Shown here piece after piece: positions 1,271 to 59,001 of a DNA stretch of 64,000 bases (position 1 is its first letter; every line of letters starts with the position of its first letter). Below the pieces are notes generated by a model, which saw only the letters and a list, made by a program, of their open reading frames with translations, was not told the DNA's origin and did no database searches. The stretch spans positions 31,806-95,805 of the forward strand of contig CAKPLP010000001.1 of the NCBI GenBank assembly GCA_934167695.1, written 5' to 3'. The position numbers and the translations under genes were made by a program. Source of the stretch: an uncultured Bacilli bacterium (GTDB taxonomy: Bacteria; Bacillota_I; Bacilli_A; RF39; UBA660).

Positions 1271-1952
1271 CTAAAGTCTTACCTTTAGTTTCTCAAGAAT
1301 CTTAGTTTCCTTTCTAGATACCTGTACTTGACTAATTCCCATCTCTCTAGAAATTTCACTCTGGGTATAACCATTAAAATATCTATCATAAATAATTTTT
1401 TTATCTTCTTCATTAAGAAGATTAATTTGTGTATTCAAATCCATTATATTACTATCCATATTTTTATCATAAACTTTTACAGAGTTATAATAATCACTGC
1501 TATCAGTATCACCAATCTCTTCATCTAAACTTTTTATATAATTAGTAGCTTCTTTTGCTAATGCTATCTTTTCTTCATCTATCTCTAAAAATATAGAAAC
1601 TTCCATATCAGATGGCTCTCTAGATAATTTTTGTCTTAACAATTCCCTTGCTTTTTCAATGGATTTATTAAGCTTTATAATATCTCTACTAATTTTTACA
1701 GTTCTATCTTCACGAATATATTTAGTAACTTCACCTAAAACATAATAATAAGCATAAGTAGAAAATTTAGCACTATTTACACTCTTACAAGAAGTCATAT
1801 TATAAATCACCGCTTTCATTATAATTTTTATAAGCCTTAACTAAAGCCATCATTCCAACTTGATATAAATCTTCATAATTACTATAATTACTAAATTTCT
1901 TAATAACAGAATTCACAACCCATTCATAATCCAAAATGAAGTCAATATCCAT
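1271..1952 (-). pseudogene. sigF: sporulation sigma factor SigF-like gene split over two frames (frameshifted or pseudogene)
   Basis: The N-terminal piece 1800..1952 encodes MDIDFILDYEWVVNSVIKKFSNYSNYEDLYQVGMMALVKAYKNYNESGDL*, which covers sigma region 2.1-2.2. It has a good RBS (GAGGAG) and ends at a TAA at 1800..1802. A 182-aa ORF in the +1 frame (1271..1819) follows, carrying FSTYAYYYVLGE (region 2.3/2.4) and a C-terminus ISQVQVSRKETKILEKLKV that closely matches SigF/SigG region 4. I re-read the codons by hand and the stop is as stated. Confidence 0.6.
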
Positions 1953-3235: not shown

Positions 3236-4162
3236 CTAATTGTCATCTTTTTCTACTTTAACAAAAGTATAATTATTATCTTTATCTAACTTAAATGTAT
3301 ATTTATATTTTTCAAAATCCTTATAATTACTCTCAATAATACTTTGACTATCATTAACAATTCCACTTTTATATGGAGTGATACTCATAATAGCATCAAT
3401 ATTATCATTTAAAGAATTATACAAATTATAAGCATTATCTAAAGAAGAATTATTATCAGGAGCAGTAACACCATAATATACATCTACATAAGCAAAATCA
3501 CCATTCTTAACATAATTATTTTTATATGATATTACTGAACTAGCAGAAGTACCATCACACCCTAAAACAACATAATAAACTTTTTCATCATCATTATAAA
3601 CTAACATAGGACAATTAGAACCACTAATAGTTTTATTAATTGGAGTAGTACCAAATAAACTATTATACAATTCATTAACATCACTTACATTAATTTGAAA
3701 CTTAATATTACTACGATAAGATTCATAATTACTAGGAAGAAATATTTTGTTAACATCACCATTAACACTTTCTCTTTTTGAAGAATAAATTAATTCATTC
3801 AAAACCAATAATAATTTTTCATCATCACTTAAAATAGACTTTTTTAACAAATCAAAATTAAACTCAAAGCTTACAAAATCAGCATAAGCCTCTCCCGTAG
3901 CATCATATCTCCTACCAGAAAGCTGATCAATTTTTATATTTAAATTCTTTATAACATTAGCATCCGTTATCTTACTAGTAACATTAGAAGTATCCTTTTT
4001 TACATTTTTATCAGACTTCTCTTCAGTAGTAGTTTTATTATTAAAACTTACCCTCTTATCATAAATTATATATAACACTAACCCTAATATAACCAAAACT
4101 AAAAATATCACTAAAATAATTATTTTATTATTTAATTTCTTCTTTTCTAAATTATCATCCAT
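3236..4162 (-). CDS. hypothetical membrane-anchored protein (N-terminal TM, N/K/S/D-rich ectodomain)
   Basis: A 308-aa ORF with a hydrophobic segment IIILVIFLVLVILGLVLYIIY near the N-terminus. I recognise no motif. Confidence 0.45.
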   Translation of the reverse strand: MDDNLEKKKLNNKIIILVIFLVLVILGLVLYIIYDKRVSFNNKTTTEEKSDKNVKKDTSNVTSKITDANVIKNLNIKIDQLSGRRYDATGEAYADFVSFEFNFDLLKKSILSDDEKLLLVLNELIYSSKRESVNGDVNKIFLPSNYESYRSNIKFQINVSDVNELYNSLFGTTPINKTISGSNCPMLVYNDDEKVYYVVLGCDGTSASSVISYKNNYVKNGDFAYVDVYYGVTAPDNNSSLDNAYNLYNSLNDNIDAIMSITPYKSGIVNDSQSIIESNYKDFEKYKYTFKLDKDNNYTFVKVEKDDN

Positions 4163-4247: not shown

Positions 4248-5402
4248 CTATTCACCAACTTCACCAATTATCATTGATTGCATATTTCTTAAATATAATT
4301 GTACAAAATTTAATTTACTAATATCTTGTTTAATTACCAGATCTCCAACATAAACCGTTTTGTTTTTCTCTTTTACAGTAATTTTTCCAACTACACTTTC
4401 TTTTTTTGCAGGTAATTTTATATTATTAATTTTAGTAGTTATCTTATATTTTTTATTATTAACACCTTTATCCTGTAAAATATTAATATCATATTTTGGA
4501 TAAACATTTACATTTTTTATTGAGGCTTTATCTAAAGTTACTTTTTTTATAACATCATTACTTTTTTTAATATTTTGAACCTTTTTATTATTAAAACCAT
4601 AATCTAACAAACCCGTAGTTTCACTATTTCTAATTTTAGCAGTATTTTCTCCTAAAACAATGGCAATTAATCTCATCCCATTTCTTTTAGCCGTTGCGGC
4701 AAGACAATAACCAGCATTATCAGTATGTCCTGTTTTTAATCCATCAGCACCATCATATAAACGTACTAATTTATTAGTATTAACAAGCCAAAACTTATTT
4801 GGAGTATCAACTCTTAAATAATCCTCATAAACAGAAGAAAAATCTAAAATTTGTTTATGAGAAAGAAGCTCCCTTGCTATAATTGCCATATCATAAGCAC
4901 TAGAAAAATGACCATCTTCATCTAATCCAGTACAGTTTTTAAACACAGTGTTTTTTAAACCTAAATCCTGAACTTTCTTATTCATCATTTTTACAAATTT
5001 ACCTTCATTACCAGCAATATATTCAGCCATTGCAACAGTAGCATCATTCGCACTAGCCATACTAATTCCTTTAAATAAGTCCTTAACAGACATTTTTTCA
5101 TCTGCAGATAAATATATTTGAGAACCACCCATATCAGCAGCATTCTTACTTACTGTAACTATATCAGTCCATTTAATTTTATTACTTTCAATATTTTCCA
5201 ATATAATAATTTGAGCAACCATTTTAGTCATAGAAGCAACTGAAACTTGTTTATCCTTTTCCTTCTCATAAATAATAGTACCAGTAGACTCTTCCATTAA
5301 CACTCCACTAACAGCATTAACAATCAAATCATTCTCTGCAAAAGCATTAATAGGAAATAAACATAAAACCAATAAAACTAAAGAAAATAAAAACTTCTTC
5401 AT
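4248..5402 (-). CDS. dacF: serine-type D-alanyl-D-alanine carboxypeptidase (PBP5/DacF-like)
   Basis: It has a signal peptide and the SxxK (VASMTKM), SxN (SANDAT) and KTG (KTGHTDNAGY) motifs. It lies upstream of spoIIAA-sigF, as dacF does in Bacillus and Clostridium. Confidence 0.8.
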   Translation of the reverse strand: MKKFLFSLVLLVLCLFPINAFAENDLIVNAVSGVLMEESTGTIIYEKEKDKQVSVASMTKMVAQIIILENIESNKIKWTDIVTVSKNAADMGGSQIYLSADEKMSVKDLFKGISMASANDATVAMAEYIAGNEGKFVKMMNKKVQDLGLKNTVFKNCTGLDEDGHFSSAYDMAIIARELLSHKQILDFSSVYEDYLRVDTPNKFWLVNTNKLVRLYDGADGLKTGHTDNAGYCLAATAKRNGMRLIAIVLGENTAKIRNSETTGLLDYGFNNKKVQNIKKSNDVIKKVTLDKASIKNVNVYPKYDINILQDKGVNNKKYKITTKINNIKLPAKKESVVGKITVKEKNKTVYVGDLVIKQDISKLNFVQLYLRNMQSMIIGEVGE

Positions 5403-5490
5403 TTAATCACTCCTACTAAAAACTATGTCATTAAGAATCTTTTATTCATATTTTAATAAAAATATGCTATTGTATTAATAGGTGATTTTT

Positions 5491-6348
5491 ATGAAAAATA
5501 TTTTAACATATATAGTAATAATATTATGTTTAACGCTAAGCATATTTCTTGCAAAAAATAATTTATTTAATAAGTCTTCATCTAAAACTAATAAAAAAAC
5601 TAATATAATAGAAAAAAAGAAAGTTGACAATAAAGAAACAAAACCAGATTATTATAATAAAGAATATAAAGAAAGATATACTGCCTATCAAAAAGAATTT
5701 CCAAATATATCATTTGAAGATGTTGTTACAAGAGTAAATATTGGTTTAGACAAACCATATTATACAAATACTAAAAAAACACCATATCAAAATAAAGACT
5801 ATATTTTAGTAAATAAATATATTTATATGGAAAATGATTATATACCAGAAAATTTAGAAGACTTAGATACAAGCTACTCAAGAAGTGGTATGAAACTAGT
5901 AAAAAGTGCTAAAGACTCATTAGAAAAAATGATTGAAAGTGCCAAAAATGATGGTTACACAATAAGAGTAATGTCGAGTTATAGAAGTTACAATTATCAA
6001 GTAAACTTATATAATCGCTATGTAAATACAGATGGCAAAGAAGCCGCAGATACATATTCAGCAAGACCAGGGTTTTCAGAACATCAAACAGGCCTATGTG
6101 TAGATATTGATGATTCAAAAATAAATTACACTAACTTTGAAAAGTCGGAATCATTTAAATGGATGCAAGAAAATGCTCACCTATATGGATTTATTTTAAG
6201 ATATCCTGAAGACAAAACAGAAATAACAGGTTATACATACGAATCATGGCACTATAGATACGTAGGTAAAGAAATAGCAACATACATAAAAAAACATAAT
6301 ATCACATTCGATGAATATTATGTTAAATTTATAGAAAATAAAAAATAA
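5491..6348 (+). CDS. M15-family (VanY-type) D,D-carboxypeptidase
   Basis: The sequence SSYRSYNYQ...FSEHQTGLCVDID...ESWHYRYVG matches VanY/peptidase M15B zinc-ligand motifs. I set the start to the ATG at 5491, which has an AGGTGA RBS; the track's 5482 start is a GTG. Confidence 0.75.
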   Translation: MKNILTYIVIILCLTLSIFLAKNNLFNKSSSKTNKKTNIIEKKKVDNKETKPDYYNKEYKERYTAYQKEFPNISFEDVVTRVNIGLDKPYYTNTKKTPYQNKDYILVNKYIYMENDYIPENLEDLDTSYSRSGMKLVKSAKDSLEKMIESAKNDGYTIRVMSSYRSYNYQVNLYNRYVNTDGKEAADTYSARPGFSEHQTGLCVDIDDSKINYTNFEKSESFKWMQENAHLYGFILRYPEDKTEITGYTYESWHYRYVGKEIATYIKKHNITFDEYYVKFIENKK

Positions 6349-6924
6349 TTAATGATCAAATCTTTTCTTCAAATACTTATAAAAATATATAAATAAAGTA
6401 ATAAGTACCCAAATAAATAATACTAAATTACTAACTTGTATAAAAGAAAGAATAAATTCATCTCTATAAAGACTATAATCCAAAGTAAGTACAATACCAT
6501 TACTAATAATATAACTAAATAATCCTAAAAAACATAAATAAATAAAGGAAAAGAAGATATAATTAATTATCTTTTTTATTTTGTCTATATTATCATTAAT
6601 AATAGTATATATAAACAAAAATGTAACAACTAATATTAATATATAATAAAGCATTATAGATGGAAAGTAATAATAATTCATTAATTTTTTAATAAAACCA
6701 TCAATACAAGAAACTACATATCCATGAAAACCACCACTTATAAATAATAAAATACATATTATAAAAGATGGAACACAAATTTTTATAATCATATTATTCT
6801 TTTTTAGATTTAACATCAAAAATATAAATAGAATTAAAATTACTAAAAACATTTCGATACCTAGAAAAGATGAAATAAAATAATTTAATATTAACCCTAA
6901 CTTATCAATAAAAGATAAATTCAT
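6349..6924 (-). CDS. hypothetical polytopic membrane protein
   Basis: 191 aa with about 5 hydrophobic helices. It is adjacent to the sortase/adhesin cluster. Confidence 0.4.
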   Translation of the reverse strand: MNLSFIDKLGLILNYFISSFLGIEMFLVILILFIFLMLNLKKNNMIIKICVPSFIICILLFISGGFHGYVVSCIDGFIKKLMNYYYFPSIMLYYILILVVTFLFIYTIINDNIDKIKKIINYIFFSFIYLCFLGLFSYIISNGIVLTLDYSLYRDEFILSFIQVSNLVLFIWVLITLFIYFYKYLKKRFDH

Positions 6925-6941
6925 ACATAGTACCTCCCTAT

Positions 6942-7610
6942 TTATACAAGTTCAAATATATAAATTGATTGTGTTGTATCACTATCTTTAGTACAAGTAA
7001 TTAAAGTTAATCCGTTAATATTATAATTAGGTCTATGAATAGCAACCACTCCTACCTTTGGTTGTACTTCTATTTTAACTAACTGATACTTATATTTTTT
7101 ATTATTATAAGTAACATAAGCATAATCACCTATTTTCAATTTATAAAGATAGGCAAAAAAAGAAATATAAGCATCACCAGAATGAGCAATTAATATAAAA
7201 TTACCATTTACTACATCAGGATAATCAGCATTATAAGAAACTGTAACATTATAACTAATATCATTATACTTTGATTCTTTATTTAAAAATCCTCTTTTTA
7301 ACCTTATTTTAGGAATTTCTAAATAACCTATATAATTATAATTACGTTTTGGAATACTACTGCTAATATTATTATTAGTGCTACCAGTGGAATTGGAATC
7401 ATTAGCACTAATATTACTAACCTCACCAGCATCATGCACCTTATCATCACTATTATCACTACTAGTTTGATCTAACATACTTAAACGAACACTTTCATAC
7501 ACTTCTTCTTTTAAAATCCTTAAATGTCCATACGATAAAACAAAAACTCCAACTAATATAAGTAAAGAGCCAAAAAGTAAAATTTGACTCTTTTTAACTT
7601 TTTTCATCAC
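6942..7610 (-). CDS. sortase (probably class D/B-like; divergent)
   Basis: It has an N-terminal TM anchor, the IPKIRLKRGF substrate-channel region, a His in NFILIAHSG and the catalytic Cys in LTLITC (TLxTC). The protein ends 16 aa after the Cys, with no obvious conserved Arg. Confidence 0.7.
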   Translation of the reverse strand: MMKKVKKSQILLFGSLLILVGVFVLSYGHLRILKEEVYESVRLSMLDQTSSDNSDDKVHDAGEVSNISANDSNSTGSTNNNISSSIPKRNYNYIGYLEIPKIRLKRGFLNKESKYNDISYNVTVSYNADYPDVVNGNFILIAHSGDAYISFFAYLYKLKIGDYAYVTYNNKKYKYQLVKIEVQPKVGVVAIHRPNYNINGLTLITCTKDSDTTQSIYIFELV

Positions 7611-7612
7611 CC

Positions 7613-9133
7613 TTAATTATTCTTCTTTGGTTTAGTAGTTACATAAATTACTGCAATACCAATTACTAGAATCATACCACCAATTATATAAATATATATT
7701 GGTATATTCTCTGCAGTATTTGGAACATCTGTAGTTGGAGTATTTTTCATAACTACTTTAGTTATTGTACCATCATCTTTTACTGTAAATGGTACAGATT
7801 CTTTATTAAGTTCATAACCATCTGGTGAAGTAATCTCTGATAATATATAATCCCCTGCAGGTAAACTTACATAATAAGGTTGATCAGTACTTGTCCATTT
7901 AGCAACTTCTTCTCCATTACTATTTTTAATAGATAATTGAGCTCCTGCAACTAGTTTACCATTACTAATATCAGTCTTACTAATTTGAGTAAAATTAACA
8001 TTAATAGTTTTATAAAGTGTTTTATTCACTGTTTTAGCAATAATTGGAATTTGAACACCAGGATCAGATGGAGTATAAGAATAAACCTCATTAGAAGCAT
8101 ATTTTATTGCAACCATAACTTGTAAATTAATTGAATCTGCATCCTTAATTTTTTCAACTGGAATTCTAACTCTAAATTTATTATTAGAAGAAGTAACTCC
8201 TGAACTAGAATTGCCACTTGCATCTACAACAACCGCATCATAAGTATTGTTAGCAAGTCCTATTTGATAATTAATAATAGATAAATTATTTCCTGTAATA
8301 GTAATCTCATTACTCTCTAAATATTTACCATCAGAAGTTAAAGAGTATTTAATACTATCTTTATCAATAGAAATACTAACAGCACCTTGATGTTCTTGAT
8401 TATATTGTACAGCATCATTCGCAAATAAATTTATTGTTCTTGCTACTTCACTTGCTTGACCAGAATCACCAGACAAAAGTAACTTCAACATATTAGAACT
8501 TTGATCACTACTTAATTGCTTATTACCATTACTATCTTTAGCTCCAACCATATCCATATAATACCATATAGCATATTGTGTTATGTATTTTTTACAAGCT
8601 TTAATTTTTTCATCTGCAGACATACCAATTTGCATATCATTAGAAGTAATTGTATAAGTATTATCATCACATCTACTTAAATATTTTGTTGAACCTTCTG
8701 AACCATAACCATTATTTAAAATATAAGCAAGTCCCGGAGCATAAGTATTAGAAACTAATTGAGGATCAGTATATTGAACAGGATTATTTGAAACCATTTT
8801 TTGACCTTCAATACAGTACATTTCATAATTTTGTCCATTTGTATCAGTTGCCTTAAAGTCATATGTCAATGATAACTCAGTTGTTTGATAATATTGATCA
8901 TTCATCAAACTCCAAGCCTTTCCCTGCTCTAATTTTGTTATATTAGAATTCAAAGTTGTTGGTACAATTTCATCAGTAGGCAATGCATAACTGCCCCCAA
9001 TACTATTAGAAGCCATAAACATCGTAAGCATAAAACAAATAAATGTAAATGCTAATACAATATTCGCACTAGACTGTTTATCCAATTTCCACCTTTTTCT
9101 TTTTACTTGTTTTTCACTATTATTAGAATTCAT
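7613..9133 (-). CDS. cell-wall-anchored thioester-domain (TED) adhesin, paralog 1
   Basis: It has a signal peptide and N-terminal YCIEGQ and TQYAIWYY motifs (TED Cys and TQxA(I/V)W Gln motifs). The C-terminus carries a CnaB/SpaA-type prealbumin-like domain (LVAGAQLSIKNSNGEEVAKW...GDYILSEITSPDGYEL). A sorting signal VPNTAEN, a hydrophobic stretch and a KPKKNN tail follow. Confidence 0.65.
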   Translation of the reverse strand: MNSNNSEKQVKRKRWKLDKQSSANIVLAFTFICFMLTMFMASNSIGGSYALPTDEIVPTTLNSNITKLEQGKAWSLMNDQYYQTTELSLTYDFKATDTNGQNYEMYCIEGQKMVSNNPVQYTDPQLVSNTYAPGLAYILNNGYGSEGSTKYLSRCDDNTYTITSNDMQIGMSADEKIKACKKYITQYAIWYYMDMVGAKDSNGNKQLSSDQSSNMLKLLLSGDSGQASEVARTINLFANDAVQYNQEHQGAVSISIDKDSIKYSLTSDGKYLESNEITITGNNLSIINYQIGLANNTYDAVVVDASGNSSSGVTSSNNKFRVRIPVEKIKDADSINLQVMVAIKYASNEVYSYTPSDPGVQIPIIAKTVNKTLYKTINVNFTQISKTDISNGKLVAGAQLSIKNSNGEEVAKWTSTDQPYYVSLPAGDYILSEITSPDGYELNKESVPFTVKDDGTITKVVMKNTPTTDVPNTAENIPIYIYIIGGMILVIGIAVIYVTTKPKKNN

Positions 9134-9198
9134 TTTCTCACCTTACCTTACTATCTACAGTATAACACAAAATAATTTTAAAACAAAATAATTTTAAA

Positions 9199-9236
9199 TA
9201 ATTTATAAAGTTTATACAAAAAAAGAATCTTACGAT
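9199..9236 (-). terminator. intrinsic terminator between the two adhesin genes
   Basis: On the minus strand, GAATCgtaaGATTC is followed by TTTTTTT. Confidence 0.5.
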
Positions 9237-9247
9237 TCCTTCTTCAT

Positions 9248-10804
9248 TTAATTTTTCTTCTTTTTAACAGTTACATAAATTACAGAAATACCAACTATTA
9301 AAATAAATCCACCAATTATATAAACATATCCCGGTATATTTTCTGCAGTATTTGGCACATCTGTAGTTGGAGTATTTTTCATAACTACTTTAGTTATTGT
9401 ACCATCATTTTTTACTTTAAATGCTACTGAAGCTTGATTAAGTTCATAACCATCTGGTGAAGTAATTTCTGATAATGTATAATCTCCTTCACTTAAATTA
9501 ACATAGTATGGATAATTATTAGTAATCCATCTAGCAATCTCCTTACCATTGCTATCTTTAATAGATAATTGAGCTCCTGAAACTAATTTATCATTAGTAA
9601 TATCAGTTTTTGTTATCTCAGTTAAATTAAGAGAAATAGACGTAGTAAATCCTGTTGTAGTTTTTGTTTTATCTGCAACAATAGGAGATTGAGCACCATC
9701 AACTGAAGGTGTATATTTATATACAACATCTTTAGAATATGAAACAGTCATAGCAATATCTAAACTAACAGAATCAATATTTTTTAACTTATCTAATGGT
9801 ATTCTAATTTTAAATTTATTATTAGCAGATACATTTTGTAAATTTGGATTAATATTTCCATCTGAATCAATAAATACAGCTTCTACATTATTTTTAGAAA
9901 AAGCAGCCGTATAAAATAAATTTAAATTTTTATTTGTTGAACTAACAGTAATAAAGTTACTTTCTAAATACTTACCATCATCTGTCACTGTATATTTAAT
10001 ATCAGAAGTATCAATAGAATAAGTACAAACCTCATGACTTTTATCATTATATAATTTTGCCTCATTAGCAAAATTTATAACTTGTTGTGCAACATCAGTT
10101 GCTTGAGTAACATTACCATTAGCATAATTTTCTAAATTTTGTCTTTTTGCTTCTGTTAGTTGAGTATTACCATTACTATCCTTATAACCAACCATATCTA
10201 AATAATACCATATAGCATATTGTGTTAAATACTTTTTACACGCTCTAACTCTATCTCCTACATCAACATTACCAGTACTTGAAATATTATCAATAGTACT
10301 AATAAAATAATTAGGAGCATTAGTATCACAAAACTTCATAAACGAACTATCTGTAGAATTTGGATAACCGTTATTTAAAATATAAGCAAGTCCCGGAGCA
10401 TAAGAATCGTCCATCATTTCATAATTACTATAAGTTATAGTACCCGTACCAATTCCTTTTTGACCTTCTACACAATACATATCATGTTCAACACCAGATG
10501 AGTCTGTTGCCTTAAAATCGTATGGCAAAGTTAACATTAAATTCTCATCACTTTCAGGTTCTGCTACATTTCTAATTAACCACCATCTATAAGTATTATC
10601 AAAATTAGTAAAATTAGATTTTAAAGTAGACATTTCTGGAGTAAGATTTAATGTAAAATTCTCATCTGCAAAACTGCTACCAATACTATTTGAAAACATA
10701 AACATTGTAAGCATAAAACAAATAAATGTAAATGCCAAAACTATATTAGCACTTGACTGCTTATCTAATTTCCATTTTCTCTTTTTATTACTTTCTTTTT
10801 TCAT
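9248..10804 (-). CDS. cell-wall-anchored thioester-domain (TED) adhesin, paralog 2
   Basis: Its N-terminal leader (KKRKWKLDKQSSANIVLAFTFICFMLTMFM) and C-terminal domain plus sorting signal are near-identical to paralog 1. YCVEGQ and TQYAIWYY are present. The middle of the protein has diverged. Confidence 0.65.
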   Translation of the reverse strand: MKKESNKKRKWKLDKQSSANIVLAFTFICFMLTMFMFSNSIGSSFADENFTLNLTPEMSTLKSNFTNFDNTYRWWLIRNVAEPESDENLMLTLPYDFKATDSSGVEHDMYCVEGQKGIGTGTITYSNYEMMDDSYAPGLAYILNNGYPNSTDSSFMKFCDTNAPNYFISTIDNISSTGNVDVGDRVRACKKYLTQYAIWYYLDMVGYKDSNGNTQLTEAKRQNLENYANGNVTQATDVAQQVINFANEAKLYNDKSHEVCTYSIDTSDIKYTVTDDGKYLESNFITVSSTNKNLNLFYTAAFSKNNVEAVFIDSDGNINPNLQNVSANNKFKIRIPLDKLKNIDSVSLDIAMTVSYSKDVVYKYTPSVDGAQSPIVADKTKTTTGFTTSISLNLTEITKTDITNDKLVSGAQLSIKDSNGKEIARWITNNYPYYVNLSEGDYTLSEITSPDGYELNQASVAFKVKNDGTITKVVMKNTPTTDVPNTAENIPGYVYIIGGFILIVGISVIYVTVKKKKN

Positions 10805-10866
10805 AAAAAACACCTTACCTTACAAATAATAATATAACACATATTTTTTGTTAAATAACCCAAAAG

Positions 10867-12090
10867 TTAATTAATTTCAAAAACATCGTCAGAAAGTGTA
10901 AAGTCATTTTTATCATTTACATATAATGTCATCAAAAGATCTCCTTCCTTGACACTTTCACCTACTATTTTATTAAGTATAATTCCTACACTATGATCAA
11001 TTACATCTTCCTTTTCTCTTCTACCAGCACCTAATTCTAAACTAATTTTACCAATTTCCAAAGCATTAATTCCTTTTATAATGCCTGCCTTCTTGCTATA
11101 AATCTTTTCAGTTTTAGAACTAATCTTCATTTTATTTATATCGCCACCCTGATTATGAACTATTTCAATAAATTTATTATAAGCTAATCCATTTGACAAA
11201 ACATTTCTAACAAGAACAGCCGCCTCATCAATAGAAATTTCTTTGGCCATACTAACCATATTACTAGCAAGTTCTACACATAAATCATAAAAAGCACCAT
11301 CCGTATTACCTTTAAGAGTATCAATCGCTTCCATAACCTCTAAACTATTTCCAATACAGCTACCTAATGGATTATCCATATTTGAAATAACATATCTAAC
11401 TTCCTTTTTATATTTAATTCCTATTTTTTTCATTAATTCAGCCAAAACAAGAGCATCATCATAGTTAGAAACAAGAGCACCATTACCATACTTAACATCC
11501 AAAAGAATTTTATCTGCTCCACCAGCTATTTTCTTACTCATAATACTAACTGCAATTAATGGAATTGAAGAAACTGTTGCAGTAACATCTCTCAAAGCAT
11601 AAATAACTTTATCAAGAGGAACCAAATTAGCAGTTTGTCCGGTTATTACAGCACCAACACTTTTTAAAGATACATCAACCTCATCATTAGATAAATCAGT
11701 TCTAAAGCCTTCAATAGACTCTAATTTATCAATAGTACCACCAGTATATCCTAAACCTCTACCACTCATTTTTACAACAGGAATTCCTAAACTAGCAACA
11801 ACTGGTACAATTACCAAAGTAGTTTTATCACCAATTCCACCAGTTGAATGTTTATCAACTTTAATTCCGGGAATATTATCAAAATTTAAAACCTCTCCAC
11901 TATTTATAAAAATATCTGTAAGATTAAAAATTTCATCTTCACTCATTCCATTAATACAAATAGCCATTAATAAACTACTCATCTGATAATCCTTTACAGT
12001 TCCATTCAAATATCCCATAAAGATTTTTTTAAGTTCATCATAACTTAAATCTTTCCCTAATCTTTTTTTATCAATAATATCTTTTATCAT
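10867..12090 (-). CDS. pdp: pyrimidine-nucleoside (thymidine) phosphorylase
   Basis: KHSTGGIGDKTTL and overall collinearity match Pdp/DeoA. Confidence 0.85.
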   Translation of the reverse strand: MIKDIIDKKRLGKDLSYDELKKIFMGYLNGTVKDYQMSSLLMAICINGMSEDEIFNLTDIFINSGEVLNFDNIPGIKVDKHSTGGIGDKTTLVIVPVVASLGIPVVKMSGRGLGYTGGTIDKLESIEGFRTDLSNDEVDVSLKSVGAVITGQTANLVPLDKVIYALRDVTATVSSIPLIAVSIMSKKIAGGADKILLDVKYGNGALVSNYDDALVLAELMKKIGIKYKKEVRYVISNMDNPLGSCIGNSLEVMEAIDTLKGNTDGAFYDLCVELASNMVSMAKEISIDEAAVLVRNVLSNGLAYNKFIEIVHNQGGDINKMKISSKTEKIYSKKAGIIKGINALEIGKISLELGAGRREKEDVIDHSVGIILNKIVGESVKEGDLLMTLYVNDKNDFTLSDDVFEIN

Positions 12091-12158
12091 TATCATCCCT
12101 CTATTCTATTAATAGAATATCAAATTATTAAAAAAAAAACTATAAATTAATATAGTTT

Positions 12159-26513: not shown

Positions 26514-27062
26514 TTATTCATTCTTATCAAGAGTTAACTCACCTGTTGTTATAACCAAGCTATCATAATTAGAATCAACTAAATTAAAACTTCTAGTTTT
26601 TGGTGCAGCATTAATAAGTTCATGAGTACTTGTCTCCTCAACTAAAGTAGTAGTTATTAAATCACTAGAGAATTCATGATTCCCATCAGAAGATAATTGC
26701 TTGAAATATACATTAATTGTACCATTAGCATCAACAGGCAAATTACTAAATACTACATTACCAGAATCATCAGAAGTCTGAACATTTCCATATTGATTAC
26801 CCTCAGCATCTACTCTAACAAAAGTAGCACCTACGATAGGAACACCAGCTACAGTTCCATCTTCTGAAACATGTAAAGTTAAAACACCTTTTGCTGCTAT
26901 CGTAAAGTTATAAATAGTTTCAGTATCAGTAACATTAATAGATGATGGTGTTATTGTAGAATTATCATAACCCAATACATTTGCAGTAACAGCATATTCA
27001 CCATTTAATACCTTTTCTTCCGCTACACCGTTAGTAATATTTATAGTGTATTTTTTTGACAT
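26514..27062 (-). CDS. hypothetical protein (possible beta-sandwich/CnaB-like fold); cargo of the recombinase element
   Basis: 182 aa, Thr/Val/Gly-rich (GTVAGVPIVGATFVRVDAEGNQYGNVQTSDDSGNVVFSNLP). Its stop overlaps the start of the next gene. Confidence 0.4.
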   Translation of the reverse strand: MSKKYTINITNGVAEEKVLNGEYAVTANVLGYDNSTITPSSINVTDTETIYNFTIAAKGVLTLHVSEDGTVAGVPIVGATFVRVDAEGNQYGNVQTSDDSGNVVFSNLPVDANGTINVYFKQLSSDGNHEFSSDLITTTLVEETSTHELINAAPKTRSFNLVDSNYDSLVITTGELTLDKNE

Positions 27063-27373
27063 AAAATAATTTTTCCTCCCTTAATAATTAAATCTTGATA
27101 ATATTTATCATGCAGAATAATCGTGGAGGTTTTTGTCAAATTATTATAAAAATCAAAATACAACTCATCCTGATTTTTAAACTTTTCTAAATAAGAATAC
27201 GGATAATAATAAGGACTTTTAATACCAATATAACCATCAAAATATTTATCTAAATATATATTAGTTTCCCCATAAATTTTTTTCTTATCTATAACATCAC
27301 CATTATTATTATAAATTAATAATTCAAATTCTCTATTTAATAATTGATTATTCAATCTGCATCTTATTAACAA
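27041..27373 (-). CDS. hypothetical protein; cargo of the recombinase element
   Basis: 110 aa, overlapping the downstream gene by 22 nt. Confidence 0.35.
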   Translation of the reverse strand: MLIRCRLNNQLLNREFELLIYNNNGDVIDKKKIYGETNIYLDKYFDGYIGIKSPYYYPYSYLEKFKNQDELYFDFYNNLTKTSTIILHDKYYQDLIIKGGKIILCQKNTL

Positions 27374-27448: not shown

Positions 27449-28999
27449 TCACTTTCCAAAGGTTAAAATCAAATTTATTCTCTTATCGTCAAATATTTCA
27501 ATTTTTTCAATCAACTGAACAATTAATTCCCTACTTACATTAGACATACTTAAATAATCATTAATAAATTGTTCTACAAAAAATTTTTCTTTAACTTTTC
27601 TCTTTTCCAAACTAGTTTTCTTTAAATAAACCCGTCTACTATTTTTAATTTCTAAATTTTTATATATCCTATCTTTAACCCTAGAAAATTGTTCATCATC
27701 TATAACCTTATTTAACTTATCTATATATACTTCATCCAAATTTTCATTCAACTTATTAATTTCTAAATTAAGCATATTAATTTCTTCTTGTATATTATCA
27801 GTTTGCATGTTAGATAATTCTTCATTAATACTTTTCTTTATTTTTTCAACATCAATAAAATTAAACAAAATTTTTTTTAATTCACTAATAATCTTTTTCT
27901 CCAACAAGTCATAATTATTAGAATGCGTTGTACATACTTTCTCCTTAATATATGCTCTATAATAATTACAAACAGTATAACAATTATTATCTTTTTTTCT
28001 CCTTGAAGTAACAGATATTCTATGACCACAATCACCACAATATAACAATCCATCTAATAAATGTTTTTCTTTTTTTTCACAACGACCCACATTTTTAGGA
28101 ATCAACTTCTGCACCTCAAAAAAAGTATTTCTATCAATAATTGCTTCATGAGTATTTTCAACTACTATATATTTACTAGGATCATTTCTAGCAATTTTCT
28201 TTATTTTATAATTAATTTTATATCTTTTGCCTTGAACCAAATCCCCTATATAAATTCTATTAGTTAAAATATCCTTAATCGTTTTAGCATTCCAACTTCC
28301 AATTTTTAATGAACTATTCTTTTTCCAAACAAAATTATAATATGCAGAAGGATTTTTTACATTTTCAATAGTCAATATTTTTGCAATTTTAAAACAAGTT
28401 AACCCTTCTAAACACATTTTATAAATTCTTTTAACAACTTCAGCTTGGGAAGAATCTATAATCAAATGATTCTTATCAAGAGGATCTTTTTTATATCCAA
28501 ATGCTACTCTACCACTCACCCACTTCCCTTCTTTTTTTTTAGCCATCAAACTAGATCTTATTTTTTTTGAAATATCTTTAGCATACATATCGTTCATTAT
28601 AGCCTTAAAAGGAGCTATATCATTATTGGAACTATCTAAAAAGGTATCAATATTATCAGTAATAGCAACATATCTGACATTATGAGAAGGAAAATATTTT
28701 TCTATAAAGTTTCCTGTTTCAATATAATCCCTACCCAATCTAGACATATCTTTCGTAAGAACCATATTAACATTATTATTTTCAATATCACTAAGTAACT
28801 TCTTAAACGCAGGTCTATTAAAATTCGTACCACTATAACCATCATCTATATATATATCATAAATAGATAAATTATTTTCTTTTACATATTGAAGTAGTAA
28901 ACTCTTTTGATTAGTAATACTTTCACTTTCTTCTTTACTATCTAAATCCTCATGTGACAATCTAATATAAACACCAACATTAAAGACTATATTATTCAA
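27449..28999 (-). CDS. large serine recombinase (resolvase/invertase catalytic domain, recombinase domain and zinc ribbon)
   Basis: The N-terminus GVYIRLSHEDLD...SITNQ has the catalytic Ser in the Y.R.S motif. A central recombinase domain is followed by a Cys cluster YCGDCGHRISV...C..C. It has a TTG start with an AAGGGA RBS. Confidence 0.85.
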   Translation of the reverse strand: MNNIVFNVGVYIRLSHEDLDSKEESESITNQKSLLLQYVKENNLSIYDIYIDDGYSGTNFNRPAFKKLLSDIENNNVNMVLTKDMSRLGRDYIETGNFIEKYFPSHNVRYVAITDNIDTFLDSSNNDIAPFKAIMNDMYAKDISKKIRSSLMAKKKEGKWVSGRVAFGYKKDPLDKNHLIIDSSQAEVVKRIYKMCLEGLTCFKIAKILTIENVKNPSAYYNFVWKKNSSLKIGSWNAKTIKDILTNRIYIGDLVQGKRYKINYKIKKIARNDPSKYIVVENTHEAIIDRNTFFEVQKLIPKNVGRCEKKEKHLLDGLLYCGDCGHRISVTSRRKKDNNCYTVCNYYRAYIKEKVCTTHSNNYDLLEKKIISELKKILFNFIDVEKIKKSINEELSNMQTDNIQEEINMLNLEINKLNENLDEVYIDKLNKVIDDEQFSRVKDRIYKNLEIKNSRRVYLKKTSLEKRKVKEKFFVEQFINDYLSMSNVSRELIVQLIEKIEIFDDKRINLILTFGK

Positions 29000-46309: not shown

Positions 46310-46665
46310 AAATAATATTTAATAAGCCATGTTCTGTACCTTAAAAGGTGACAAACATTTATCTACTGATTTCTCAGTCCCTAACATTGGTTCTTAATTT
46401 CCTAGTTAAAGCTCCCCTACCATAATTTGGGTTTCTCACTCGTGGAGTTTACCGCGTTTCACTTCTTAATTTCTTAAGAATTCGTCACTGTGGCACTTTA
46501 TAGGTAACAATCATATCATTGACTTAGATTATCACCTAGTCGTTAGAATTATCTACCTTAGGTTATTTTTTTCCTAAGCACGAACACTACAAACATCACA
46601 GTTTGTGTGAGCATGGACTTTCCTCAATACTCTTTAAGAGTACCGCGTTTGTCTAAAATATTATT
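46310..46665 (-). ncRNA. rnpB: RNase P RNA (type B); ends approximate
   Basis: The minus strand contains GAGGAAAGTCCATGCTCACAC (P4 5' strand), GTAGTGTTCGTGCTTAG, AAAGTGCCACAGTGACGAA, GTGAAACGCGGTAAACTCCACGAGTGAGAAACCCAAATTATGGTAGGGGAGC and ACAGAACATGGCTTA (P4 3' strand). These closely match B. subtilis RNase P RNA, and the position next to gpsB matches Bacillus synteny. Confidence 0.85.
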
Positions 46666-57525: not shown

Positions 57526-59001
57526 ATGGAAAAATTAGAAATTATTAAGAATATTGCCGAAAGAACAGGCGGAGACATATATTTAGGGGTTGTTGGTGCA
57601 GTCCGTACTGGTAAAAGTACTTTTATAAAACGTGTAGTAGAAACACTAATAGTTCCTAATATAGAAGATACCTATGAGAAAAAAAGAGCATTAGACGAAG
57701 TTCCACAATCAGCACAAGGCAAAATGATTATGACAACAGAACCTAAATTTGTTCCTAATCAAGCTGCTAAAATTAAAATAGATGACTTTGATTGTAATAT
57801 CAGATTAATTGATTGTGTTGGTTACGTTATAGATAATGCCAAAGGAATCGAGGATGAAAATGGCCCAAGAATGGTAAAAACACCATGGTATGATGAAGAA
57901 ATTCCATTTATTGAAGCTGCCGAAATAGGAACAGAAAAAGTAATAAAAGATCATTCAACAATAGGAATAGTTGTAACAACAGATGGTTCAATAGGAGAAT
58001 TTAACAGAGGAGATTACCTAAATGCAGAAGAAAGAGTAATAACAGAACTAAAAAGTCTAAATAAGCCATTTATTGTTATTTTAAATACAACACATCCAAC
58101 ATTACCAGAAACAGAACGATTAGCAGAATCCATAAAAGAAAAATATGATGTTCCAGTTATGCCTATAAACGTAGAAGCAATGACAGAAATAGATATGTAT
58201 AAAATATTAAGAGAAGCTCTATATGAATTCCCAGTACTAGAAATAAAAGTAAGTATGCCAGAATGGATAGCAATATTAAATCACAACCACCCATTAAAGA
58301 AAAAATATATAGAAGCAATTAAAGAAAGTGTTGTAGAAGTAGACAAATTAAGAGATATTGAAACTATTACAAATCACTTTTTAAATTGTGAAGAAATAGA
58401 AAAATCTTATATATCAAATGTTGATCCTAAAACAGGAATCGTTACAATTACCTTAACAGCACCTAATGATTTATACGATAAGACATTAAGTGAAATAATT
58501 GATGTAGATGTAAAAAGTAAGGCAGATCTATTAGGTATCTTCCAAGAATTTAATACAGCAAAAAGAGAATACGATCAAATAAAATATGCCCTAAAAATGG
58601 TAAAACAAACAGGATATGGTATTGCAATACCATCAATACAAGATATGAAATTAGAAACGCCAGAAGTAGTAAAACAAGGGCCAAGATATGGTATAAGATT
58701 AAAAGCAGTAGCCCCTTCTATACACATGATAAAAGTTGATGTTGAATATACATTTGAACCTATTATTGGTAGTGAAACTCAATCAAAAGAGTTAATTGAT
58801 TATTTAATGAAAGATTACAAAAAAGATCCTACTTCCATTTGGCAAAGTGAACTATTTGGAAGAAGTCTAGATAATATTGTCCAAGAAGGAATACAATCAA
58901 AAATAAATATGATGCCAGACAATATTAGATTTAAATTACAACAAACACTATCAAAAGTAGTAAACAAAGGCTCAAATAATATAATTACAATCGTAATATA
59001 A
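57526..59001 (+). CDS. spoIVA: stage IV sporulation protein A (spore coat morphogenetic ATPase)
   Basis: MEKLEIIKNIAERTGGDIYLGVVGAVRTGKSTFIKRVVE is near-identical to the SpoIVA N-terminal Walker A region; 491 aa. Confidence 0.9.
   Translation: MEKLEIIKNIAERTGGDIYLGVVGAVRTGKSTFIKRVVETLIVPNIEDTYEKKRALDEVPQSAQGKMIMTTEPKFVPNQAAKIKIDDFDCNIRLIDCVGYVIDNAKGIEDENGPRMVKTPWYDEEIPFIEAAEIGTEKVIKDHSTIGIVVTTDGSIGEFNRGDYLNAEERVITELKSLNKPFIVILNTTHPTLPETERLAESIKEKYDVPVMPINVEAMTEIDMYKILREALYEFPVLEIKVSMPEWIAILNHNHPLKKKYIEAIKESVVEVDKLRDIETITNHFLNCEEIEKSYISNVDPKTGIVTITLTAPNDLYDKTLSEIIDVDVKSKADLLGIFQEFNTAKREYDQIKYALKMVKQTGYGIAIPSIQDMKLETPEVVKQGPRYGIRLKAVAPSIHMIKVDVEYTFEPIIGSETQSKELIDYLMKDYKKDPTSIWQSELFGRSLDNIVQEGIQSKINMMPDNIRFKLQQTLSKVVNKGSNNIITIVI

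Follow-up and report, generated by a model that had tools for sequence, protein, structure and literature searches.

A chromosomal module of gut Bacilli that may anchor Class II thioester adhesins through a sortase with Gln in place of the catalytic Arg

Can a sortase that lacks the catalytic arginine anchor adhesins to the cell surface? The question is raised by a locus in a stretch of 64,000 nucleotides (nt) from an uncultured Bacilli bacterium (contig CAKPLP010000001.1), which we call the window and to whose positions all coordinates refer unless another locus is named. Two genes in this AT-rich DNA (G+C about 26%) encode paralogous adhesins with a thioester domain (TED), here named TED-A and TED-B, and they are followed by genes for a sortase and for a membrane protein with five transmembrane (TM) helices, the 5-TM protein. 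We read the locus as a chromosomal module for the surface display of covalent adhesins, anchored by a sortase with Gln at the position of the catalytic Arg, and we give this reading a probability of about 0.6. The system type, a sortase-anchored covalent adhesin, is already known and annotated, and the orthologues already carry the NCBI names ‘Cys-Gln thioester bond-forming surface protein’ and ‘sortase’. What is new, as far as sequences can tell, is a clade of sortases with a His-Cys-Gln centre, its steady pairing with thioester adhesins bearing VPxT(G/A/S) signals, and the 5-TM partner. The module belongs to a run of five minus-strand genes within 12096-6349, all in the same direction:

10867-12096, minus strand, pyrimidine-nucleoside phosphorylase
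9248-10804, minus strand, TED-A, 518 amino acids, counted from ATG 10804, the likelier start, with the ribosome-binding site (RBS) AAGGTAAGGTG ahead of it
7613-9133, minus strand, TED-B, 506 amino acids
6942-7610, minus strand, sortase, 222 amino acids
6349-6924, minus strand, 5-TM membrane protein, 191 amino acids

The program that listed the open reading frames (ORFs) places the TED-A start at GTG 10813, giving a span of 9248-10813. The sortase gene starts 2 nt past the TED-B stop codon and the 5-TM gene 17 nt past the sortase stop codon. Across related loci the TED and sortase genes are usually packed even more tightly, overlapping by 30-50 nt.

Both adhesins are recognized by domain models. 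The Pfam TED model (PF08341) matched TED-B with 33.6 bits and TED-A with 32.8 bits (cut-off 22), and the Pfam SpaA model (PF17802) matched them with 65.3 and 56.9 bits, respectively (cut-off 23.1). Their motifs and predicted bond-forming residues are located as follows:

8813-8815, minus strand, codon of Cys107 in the TED-B motif YCIEGQ (residues 106-111)
8564-8581, minus strand, TED-B motif TQYAIW (residues 185-190)
8051-8053, minus strand, predicted thioester Gln361 of TED-B, within VQIPII
TED-B residues K386, E433 and N464, predicted isopeptide triad
7712-7726, minus strand, TED-B signal VPNTA (residues 470-474), followed by a TM helix and a KPKKNN tail
10472-10474, minus strand, thioester Cys111 of TED-A, within YCVEGQ
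10208-10225, minus strand, TED-A motif TQYAIW
9689-9691, minus strand, predicted thioester Gln372 of TED-A
9599-9616, minus strand, SpaA/CnaB segment ITKTDI of TED-A
9440-9472, minus strand, SpaA/CnaB segment SEITSPDGYEL of TED-A
9368-9388, minus strand, SpaA/CnaB segment VVMKNTP of TED-A
9344-9358, minus strand, TED-A signal VPNTA, followed by a TM helix and a KKKKN tail

The bond-forming Cys of TEDs lies in a [YFL]C-hydrophobic-hydrophilic motif (PMC6194298), which is fitted by YCIE in TED-B (C107) and YCVE in TED-A (C111). The bonded Gln, in turn, sits on strand Q in a separate weak motif, hydrophobic-Q-x-hydrophobic (VQIPII in TED-B), and the residues of TQxxW are dispensable for bond formation (Miller et al. 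2018, PMC6194298). Four residues, C107, Q186, W190 and Q361, do not vary among 29 aligned homologues, nor among the 81 substrates encoded beside members of the sortase family. The best sequence match of TED-B is BaTIE (B. anthracis BA5258, PDB 6FWV; 2.5e-21, phmmer), and in this alignment Q361 falls on chain position 235 of 6fwv, corresponding to Gln266 of BaTIE, the crystallographic thioester Gln. The conversion allows for three extra N-terminal residues of the Glu35-Lys557 construct and follows the numbering of PMC6194298. The same alignment places K386 on Lys475 and N464 on Asn555 of BaTIE, the isopeptide pair observed in that protein (PMC6194298). E433 lies within the conserved SEITSPDGYEL segment, and all three residues are conserved; the CnaB/SpaA stalk is thus predicted to contain a Lys-Asn isopeptide (K386-N464) with E433 as the catalytic residue.

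The predicted fold agrees with this picture. The AlphaFold model of TED-B, with a mean predicted local distance difference test (pLDDT) score of 77.7, has residues 254-355 as an all-beta block that separates the helical lobe from Q361, and its top PDB fold matches are the Class II TEDs BaTIE (6fwv, 6e-20) and EfmTIE86, with 6fwy among them. Class II TEDs are defined by a beta-sandwich of at least about 75 residues between helix alpha3 and the Gln strand, in a slipknot fold, and the TQ motif and Q361 are 175 residues apart in TED-B. Taken together, the invariance of Q361, its alignment with Gln266, the all-beta insert and the Class II fold matches indicate that TED-A and TED-B are, on sequence and modelled structure, Class II TIE proteins with one stalk domain. 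The thioester pairs are predicted to be C107-Q361 in TED-B and C111-Q372 in TED-A.

A preliminary description of this locus had proposed two paralogous TED adhesins beside a sortase, and this proposal stands: the motifs were recovered in both genes, and the Pfam searches suggested there, for TED, SpaA and Sortase, all exceeded their gathering scores. The assignment of the Cys of YC(I/V)EGQ to the thioester agrees with the motif and with the invariance of this residue in 81 of 81 substrates, and the CnaB/SpaA stalk, the VPNTA signal, the TM stretch and the Lys-rich tail are all present. TQYAIW had been named as the source of the partner Gln. The motif is there, with its Gln and Trp invariant in 81 of 81, but we place the partner at Q361/Q372 instead, because the bonded Gln lies elsewhere according to PMC6194298 and Q361 aligns with Gln266. 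The pattern of conserved ends and divergent middles noted for the paralogs was also borne out. TED-A and TED-B are 51% identical overall (E = 5e-180), with 97% identity across residues 16-45 (the signal peptide) and 83-90% in the last ~60 codons, against just 25-50% in the TED body between.

Identity at third codon positions separates the two ends. It is only 0.70 in the signal-peptide region, which disfavours gene conversion as the source of the identical signal peptides and fits purifying selection better, and ~0.9 in the last ~60 codons, where conversion is therefore possible. The signal-peptide region (residues ~14-45, KLDKQSSANIVLAFTFICFMLTMFM) is conserved across the subclade well above what is usual for signal peptides, and in both adhesins a KLDKQSSA motif precedes the hydrophobic core; the region may be a specialized secretion or retention signal. 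The preliminary description saw the divergent middles as typical of antigenic or functional diversification, a suggestion to be set beside the rarity of the duplication: two TED genes are found only in the window and in one related locus (L062), and 78 of the 80 related genomes carry one substrate gene at the locus.

To which signal would the sortase respond? We drew 80 related loci from genomes that represent species and collected what is encoded upstream of each sortase, 81 substrates in all. The residues in their sorting pentapeptides are distributed as follows:

Position 1: V in 48, T in 12, A in 11 and S in 5 of the 81
Position 2: P in at least 71 of the 81
Position 3: D in 54 and N in 10 of the 81
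Position 4: T in all 81
Position 5: G in 43, A in 15 and S in 14 of the 81

The consensus of the orthologous substrates is V-P-D-T-G, and VPNTA occurs in just five of them. The resemblance of VPNTA to LPNTA is therefore a local accident of a variable position. In TED-A and TED-B the pentapeptide is followed by ~8 residues, a ~22-residue helix and the KPKKNN or KKKKN tail, and cleavage is predicted between the Thr and the Ala of VPNTA. A SpaA stalk is present in 18 of the 81 substrates, the other 63 consisting of a bare TED plus the signal.

The sortase itself matched Pfam Sortase PF04203 with 46.8 bits (cut-off 26.6). Its N-terminal TM helix leads through a low-complexity linker to the catalytic domain (about residues 91-222), in which four residues merit attention:

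7182-7184, minus strand, H143
7032-7034, minus strand, R193, in the beta6/beta7 loop
6993-6995, minus strand, C206, within TLITC
6969-6971, minus strand, Q214, in the place of the canonical Arg

TLITC206 is followed by exactly 16 residues (TKDSDTTQSIYIFELV), none of which is Arg. In the predicted structure, H143 ends beta4, C206 ends beta7 and Q214 starts beta8, which are the positions of the triad in characterized sortases (PMC13257024). All top matches in a fold search with this model are sortases. The family hidden Markov model equates H143 with H120, C206 with C184 and R193 with E171 (beta6/beta7 loop) of S. aureus SrtA, in a sequence whose H120, C184 and R197 positions checked out. Conservation across 334 distinct family sequences is 99% for each of H143, C206 and Q214 and 90% for R193, and none of these sequences has an Arg at the canonical position. 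Searching 1.84 billion representatives, we found at least 284 clusters at 50% identity that match the family profile with E < 1e-30. Nearly all of the best 150 clusters spanning the C-terminus have a Gln just ahead of the beta8 hydrophobic run, and none of these 150 has an Arg at that position. Since all relatives end 15-32 residues past the Cys, the sortase is not truncated. The DP[WFY] lid motif was found in none of the 334 family members, and the family has no C-terminal TM helix.

None of the class-specific NCBIfam models (C, D and E) reached its cut-off. Class C gave the best NCBIfam match (54.5 bits, cut-off 160, E 1.3e-14), followed by the LPxTATN-specific class D model (39 bits, cut-off 140), class E (27.9 bits, cut-off 160) and class D (25.1 bits, cut-off 165). 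The closest solved sortase in the family-profile search is C. perfringens SrtD (PDB 4D70, 4.8e-10). PDB 2kw8, considered as the B. anthracis class D enzyme, was dropped when the fold search showed it to be SrtA, a class A sortase. Sequence and model thus suggest an unclassified clade that has kept the His and the Cys and carries an invariant Gln at the Arg position. In the literature on sortases lacking Arg, we found no description of such a clade. As a speculation, R193 might give the beta6/beta7 recognition loop its form, or its partner might be the conserved Asp/Asn at the third position of the signal.

These results bear on the sortase as the preliminary description had it, with a His and the TLITC Cys and an end 16 amino acids past the Cys without an Arg. 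All of this is confirmed. The suggestion that the protein may be divergent holds insofar as the Arg is missing, but what looked like a quirk of one protein is a feature of a large clade with an invariant Gln. The proposed likeness to LPNTA and to the class D sporulation sortases proved weak, given VPNTA in 5 of 81 substrates, the consensus VPDTG, and class D scores of 25 (cut-off 165) and 39 (cut-off 140). An outlier in the family was noted (P0264, TLVTCKRPDYKKYYLVLVF; 6001-6717 of locus L081), which has neither the Gln nor a TED neighbour. It is encoded between spoIIP/gpr and a prepilin peptidase/T2SS-F pair, with a 5-TM homologue kept downstream.

Several points weigh against an anchoring role for this enzyme and its neighbours as we read it. 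Published accounts describe His-Cys-Arg as common to all sortases and the Arg as indispensable (PMC13257024, PMC11231552), so the Gln enzyme may be slow, inactive or reliant on another residue, and R193 could lie within reach of the active site. The sortase model is of moderate overall quality (mean pLDDT 68). The sequence of the beta7/beta8 loop does not align to known sortases, so that the case for equating Gln214 with the Arg is made by its conservation and by its place at the start of beta8. Finally, the 5-TM gene is absent beside some distant members (L086, L087 and L088), and thus is not obligatory across the whole clade.

The pairing of enzyme and substrate extends well beyond the window. 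In 80 species of uncultured gut Bacilli the TED, sortase and 5-TM genes share a single syntenic site on the chromosome, where the local order is ssb - (XRE) - pdp - TED - sortase - 5TM - VanY (on the opposite strand) - PBP5-type carboxypeptidase. All 80 are metagenome-assembled genomes from gut or rumen, under the labels Bacilli, Tenericutes, Mycoplasmatota, Erysipelotrichaceae or Candidatus Faecimonas, the last of which is placed by NCBI in Bacilli incertae sedis. Distant sortases with the Gln are also partnered with VPxT(G/S/E) substrates:

L083, a 601-amino-acid TED protein with three stalk domains and VPNTG, plus a 278-amino-acid 5-TM homologue
L085, a SpaA protein with VPNTS, plus a 5-TM homologue
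L086, a TED protein with VPITG
L087 (sortase at 347-1033), a substrate with VPDTE
L088 (sortase at 5001-5636), a TED protein with VPNTS

The sortase genes of L087 and L088 lie beside a gene for an N6/N4 DNA methylase and runs of small ORFs, and have the look of a conjugative or phage element. Thus, the clade also travels on mobile DNA.

The sequences ahead of the TED genes indicate how the module might be expressed. Three features were located:

10826-10854, minus strand, site resembling a promoter, ahead of TED-A, with TTAACA and TATTAT separated by 17 nt
9139-9167, minus strand, second promoter and RBS block, upstream of TED-B, with an extended -10 element TGTTATACT at 9159-9167 and the RBS AAGGTAAGGTG at 9139-9149
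9218-9245, minus strand, terminator-like hairpin GAATC-GTAA-GATTC and a T-run just past the TED-A stop, read from the sequence

The extended -10 element of TED-A (TGTTATATT, 10831-10839) overlaps the TTAACA/TATTAT site, and the RBS AAGGTAAGGTG comes next. Each of the two TED genes has its own copy of this leader, an extended -10 element TGTTATAYT and then the RBS (9139-9167 and 10811-10839). Of 79 loci, 76 have TGnTATA(C/A)T followed by TAAGGTAAGGTG, an unusually long RBS, ahead of the TED gene, whereas ~4% would be expected from base composition. This conserved leader (L001-L079) lies ~20-30 nt upstream of the TED start and was kept although the flanking intergenic sequence diverged. The pattern points to transcription of the TED gene by a housekeeping sigma factor and argues against sporulation-specific expression. 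The hairpin at 9218-9245 is AT-rich and weak and was not called by the terminator scan. An intrinsic terminator that was called, at 7564-7593, was disregarded; it falls within the coding region of the sortase, and shuffled sequence gave at least as many calls.

The 5-TM gene falls in the interval covered by the preliminary description, which did not mention it. Conserved residues of the protein include S18-S19, E24, N39, Y84-x-Y-F-P88, Y153 and Q163-x-S-N166. No match was found in Pfam, NCBIfam or the PDB, either with the single sequence or with a 15-member profile, and a homologue search returned just unnamed close relatives. The 5-TM protein, whose gene travels with that of the sortase, is most likely an accessory subunit, one that would dock the enzyme, the helix of the substrate or the acceptor. 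Convergent with its gene is one for a VanY-type carboxypeptidase on the plus strand. The VanY gene ends at 6348 and the 5-TM gene at 6349, so that stop abuts stop with a spacer of 0 (6346-6351), leaving no room for a terminator between the convergent transcripts.

How might the parts work together? We propose that Sec would export the adhesin, with the C-terminal helix keeping it in the membrane, while the next gene, translationally coupled, would supply the membrane-anchored sortase. Cys206 of the sortase would attack the Thr-Ala bond of VPNT|A to form a thioacyl intermediate, which the amine of a cell-wall precursor would resolve, fixing the adhesin to peptidoglycan. An m-DAP (meso-diaminopimelic acid) type of peptidoglycan is predicted for the related orders RF39 and ML615J-28 (PMC10868615). 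The buried Cys-Gln thioester of the displayed adhesin could then react with an amine on the target surface to give a permanent isopeptide link. In the sortase, the carboxamide of Gln214 may replace the hydrogen bonds that Arg makes to the substrate and the oxyanion, in the manner of Gln19 of papain. In papain the side-chain amide of Gln19 forms the oxyanion hole alongside the Cys-His pair. The likeness to the papain family would be one of analogy, a Cys-His pair and a Gln amide on an unrelated fold. Bentley et al. are said to have found in 2008 that neutral citrulline can replace R197 in SrtA.

The preliminary description had also spoken of a spore former, and SpoIVA, SpoVAC and SpoVAD are indeed encoded in the window. 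SpoIVA is intact with all three Pfam domains (57526-59001, plus strand). SpoVAC lies at 772-1218 on the minus strand, and SpoVAD, at 2-820 on the same strand, is cut by the window edge. A sigma-F-like gene (1271-1952, minus strand) is split by a frameshift near 1800-1819 into a 50-amino-acid ORF with the region-2-like DLYQVGMMALVKAYKNY and an overlapping 182-amino-acid ORF that has FSTYA followed by Sigma70 regions 3 and 4. The split reflects either pseudogene formation or an error of assembly. Two minus-strand ORFs lie between this gene and that for the carboxypeptidase, one at 3236-4162 (308 amino acids, with an N-terminal TM helix) and one at 1963-2298 (111 amino acids), and Pfam gave no match to either at E < 0.001. 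From the sigma-F-like gene to the 111-amino-acid ORF, no ORF of the size of SpoIIAB was found. Judging by this gene content, the organism has, or recently had, an endospore programme. Elsewhere in the window, a class B bacterial RNase P RNA was identified at 46318-46660 (minus strand, 284 bits), and no tRNA genes were found across the whole 64 kb. Together with the G+C of about 26%, this type of RNase P RNA points to a low-GC member of the Bacillota. A large serine recombinase (27449-28999, minus strand) with Resolvase, Recombinase and zinc-ribbon domains adjoins small unannotated ORFs at 26514-27373. This region may be a remnant of a prophage or integrated element, or the gene may encode a sporulation-type excision recombinase.

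What the adhesins attach to, and whether the sortase attaches them at all, can be weighed against the closest known systems. Like BaTIE, SaTIE and EfmTIE86, TED-A and TED-B join CnaB-type isopeptide domain(s) to a thioester domain of Class II, in which a beta-sandwich precedes the bonded Gln as an insert, and carry a sortase signal at the C-terminus. BaTIE differs in its LPATG signal, its disordered linker and its three stalk domains (PMC6194298); the adhesins here have one stalk domain (none in 63 of 81 orthologues), a VPxT(G/A/S) signal and a dedicated adjacent sortase. TIEpLS20 of the B. subtilis plasmid pLS20, likewise a Class II TED surface adhesin of a Firmicute, raises the thought that the anchoring is as we describe and the target is another bacterium, in aggregation or mating-pair formation. 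The mobile-element-like setting of two distant pairs of Gln sortase and TED (L087 and L088) would suit such a role, but in the window and the 80 species the module sits in a syntenic core-genome position, with no genes for a relaxase, a coupling protein or type IV secretion nearby, and TIEpLS20, a plasmid-borne conjugation adhesin, has no sorting signal and is sortase-independent (PMC8092201). We consider a bacterial target unlikely. The sortase might instead be a dead relic, leaving the TEDs membrane-anchored by their C-terminal helix. Mutation of the Arg abolishes the activity of characterized sortases (PMC13257024, PMC4498605), and these lineages have reduced genomes and reduced wall synthesis (PMC10868615). 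A relic would not be expected to keep its nucleophile, however, and the 99% conservation of His, Cys and Gln over 334 sequences and at least 284 clusters at 50% identity makes a dead enzyme very unlikely, as do the conservation of the substrate Thr and Pro alongside the enzyme and the gene coupling retained in 80 species.

Two further readings keep the sortase active in another pathway. In one, class D sorting linked to sporulation would attach the TEDs to the forespore or spore envelope through an enzyme like B. anthracis SrtC or B. subtilis YhcS. C. perfringens SrtD, the closest solved sortase, belongs to class D subfamily 5 and comes from a spore-forming Firmicute, which is a likeness to the window organism, and it is, like the window sortase, small, with an N-terminal anchor and no lid. 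It differs in its full triad (His109-Cys171-Arg178, the Arg on beta8) and its preference for LPQTGS (PMC4498605), where the window sortase has a Gln at the start of beta8, a signal beginning with Val, and scores below the class D cut-offs. A few genes separate the module from a spoIIA/spoVA-like cluster and a DacF-like carboxypeptidase in a window that encodes SpoIVA, SpoVAC and SpoVAD, and one distant relative adjoins gpr and spoIIP; the whole region from ssb to dac is syntenic, though, and its adjacency to dac and spo genes may therefore reflect just conserved core-genome order, while the window's sigma-F-like gene is frameshifted. VPNTA and the LPNTA of the Bacillus class D enzymes have P-N-T-A in common, the N-T-A residues among them, but VPNTA is a minority variant in a VPDTG family, the LPxTATN model scored 39 against 140, and 76 of 79 loci have a promoter of the housekeeping type. 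A spore-envelope role is thus decidedly unlikely. In the other reading, a class C-like sortase would polymerize TED-A and TED-B, or TED-B alone, into a short thioester-tipped fibre. The class C model gives the best NCBIfam match, clustering of sortase and substrate is typical of pilus loci (PMC13257024), as in the RrgC system of S. pneumoniae, and the family consensus VPDTG is the very signal of the pilin RrgC, pneumococcal pilin signals also lacking Leu at position 1 (PMC11231552). A weak C-terminal match to the SpaH/EbpB pilin model was seen as well. Yet class C sortases, which polymerize pilins, combine a lid and the catalytic Arg with a TM helix at the C-terminus, features absent from the window sortase: the class C score of 54.5 falls far below 160, the lid motif occurs in 0 of 334 members, and proteins that end 15-32 residues past the Cys have no C-terminal TM helix. 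No YPK pilin motif was found in TED-A or TED-B, the locus holds a single substrate gene in 78 of 80 genomes, and with 63 of 81 substrates lacking a stalk there is no conserved pilin Lys beyond the isopeptide Lys. Pilus assembly is the least probable of these alternatives, and anchoring of single covalent adhesins by the Gln sortase remains the reading that we prefer.

More tentatively, and at odds that we would put below even, the family may constitute a seventh sortase class, with a His-Cys-Gln centre, V-P-x-T-(G/A/S) specificity on thioester adhesins and a chromosomal form with a dedicated 5-TM subunit; in a large lineage of uncultured gut Bacilli with reduced genomes, this one pair of enzyme and substrate would then serve as the conserved route for covalent host attachment. 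If the Gln enzymes are active, the chemical role of the Arg needs rethinking as one of hydrogen bonding, not charge, and sortase-based protein ligation would gain a new scaffold and a new recognition motif (VPxTG). Orthology-based surveys conclude that sortases are missing from related orders, which would thus display few surface proteins (PMC10868615); an enzyme as divergent as this one could escape such surveys. The presence of the module as a single copy at a fixed position in 80 small-genome gut species suggests that covalent adhesion is central to the persistence of these bacteria in the gut.

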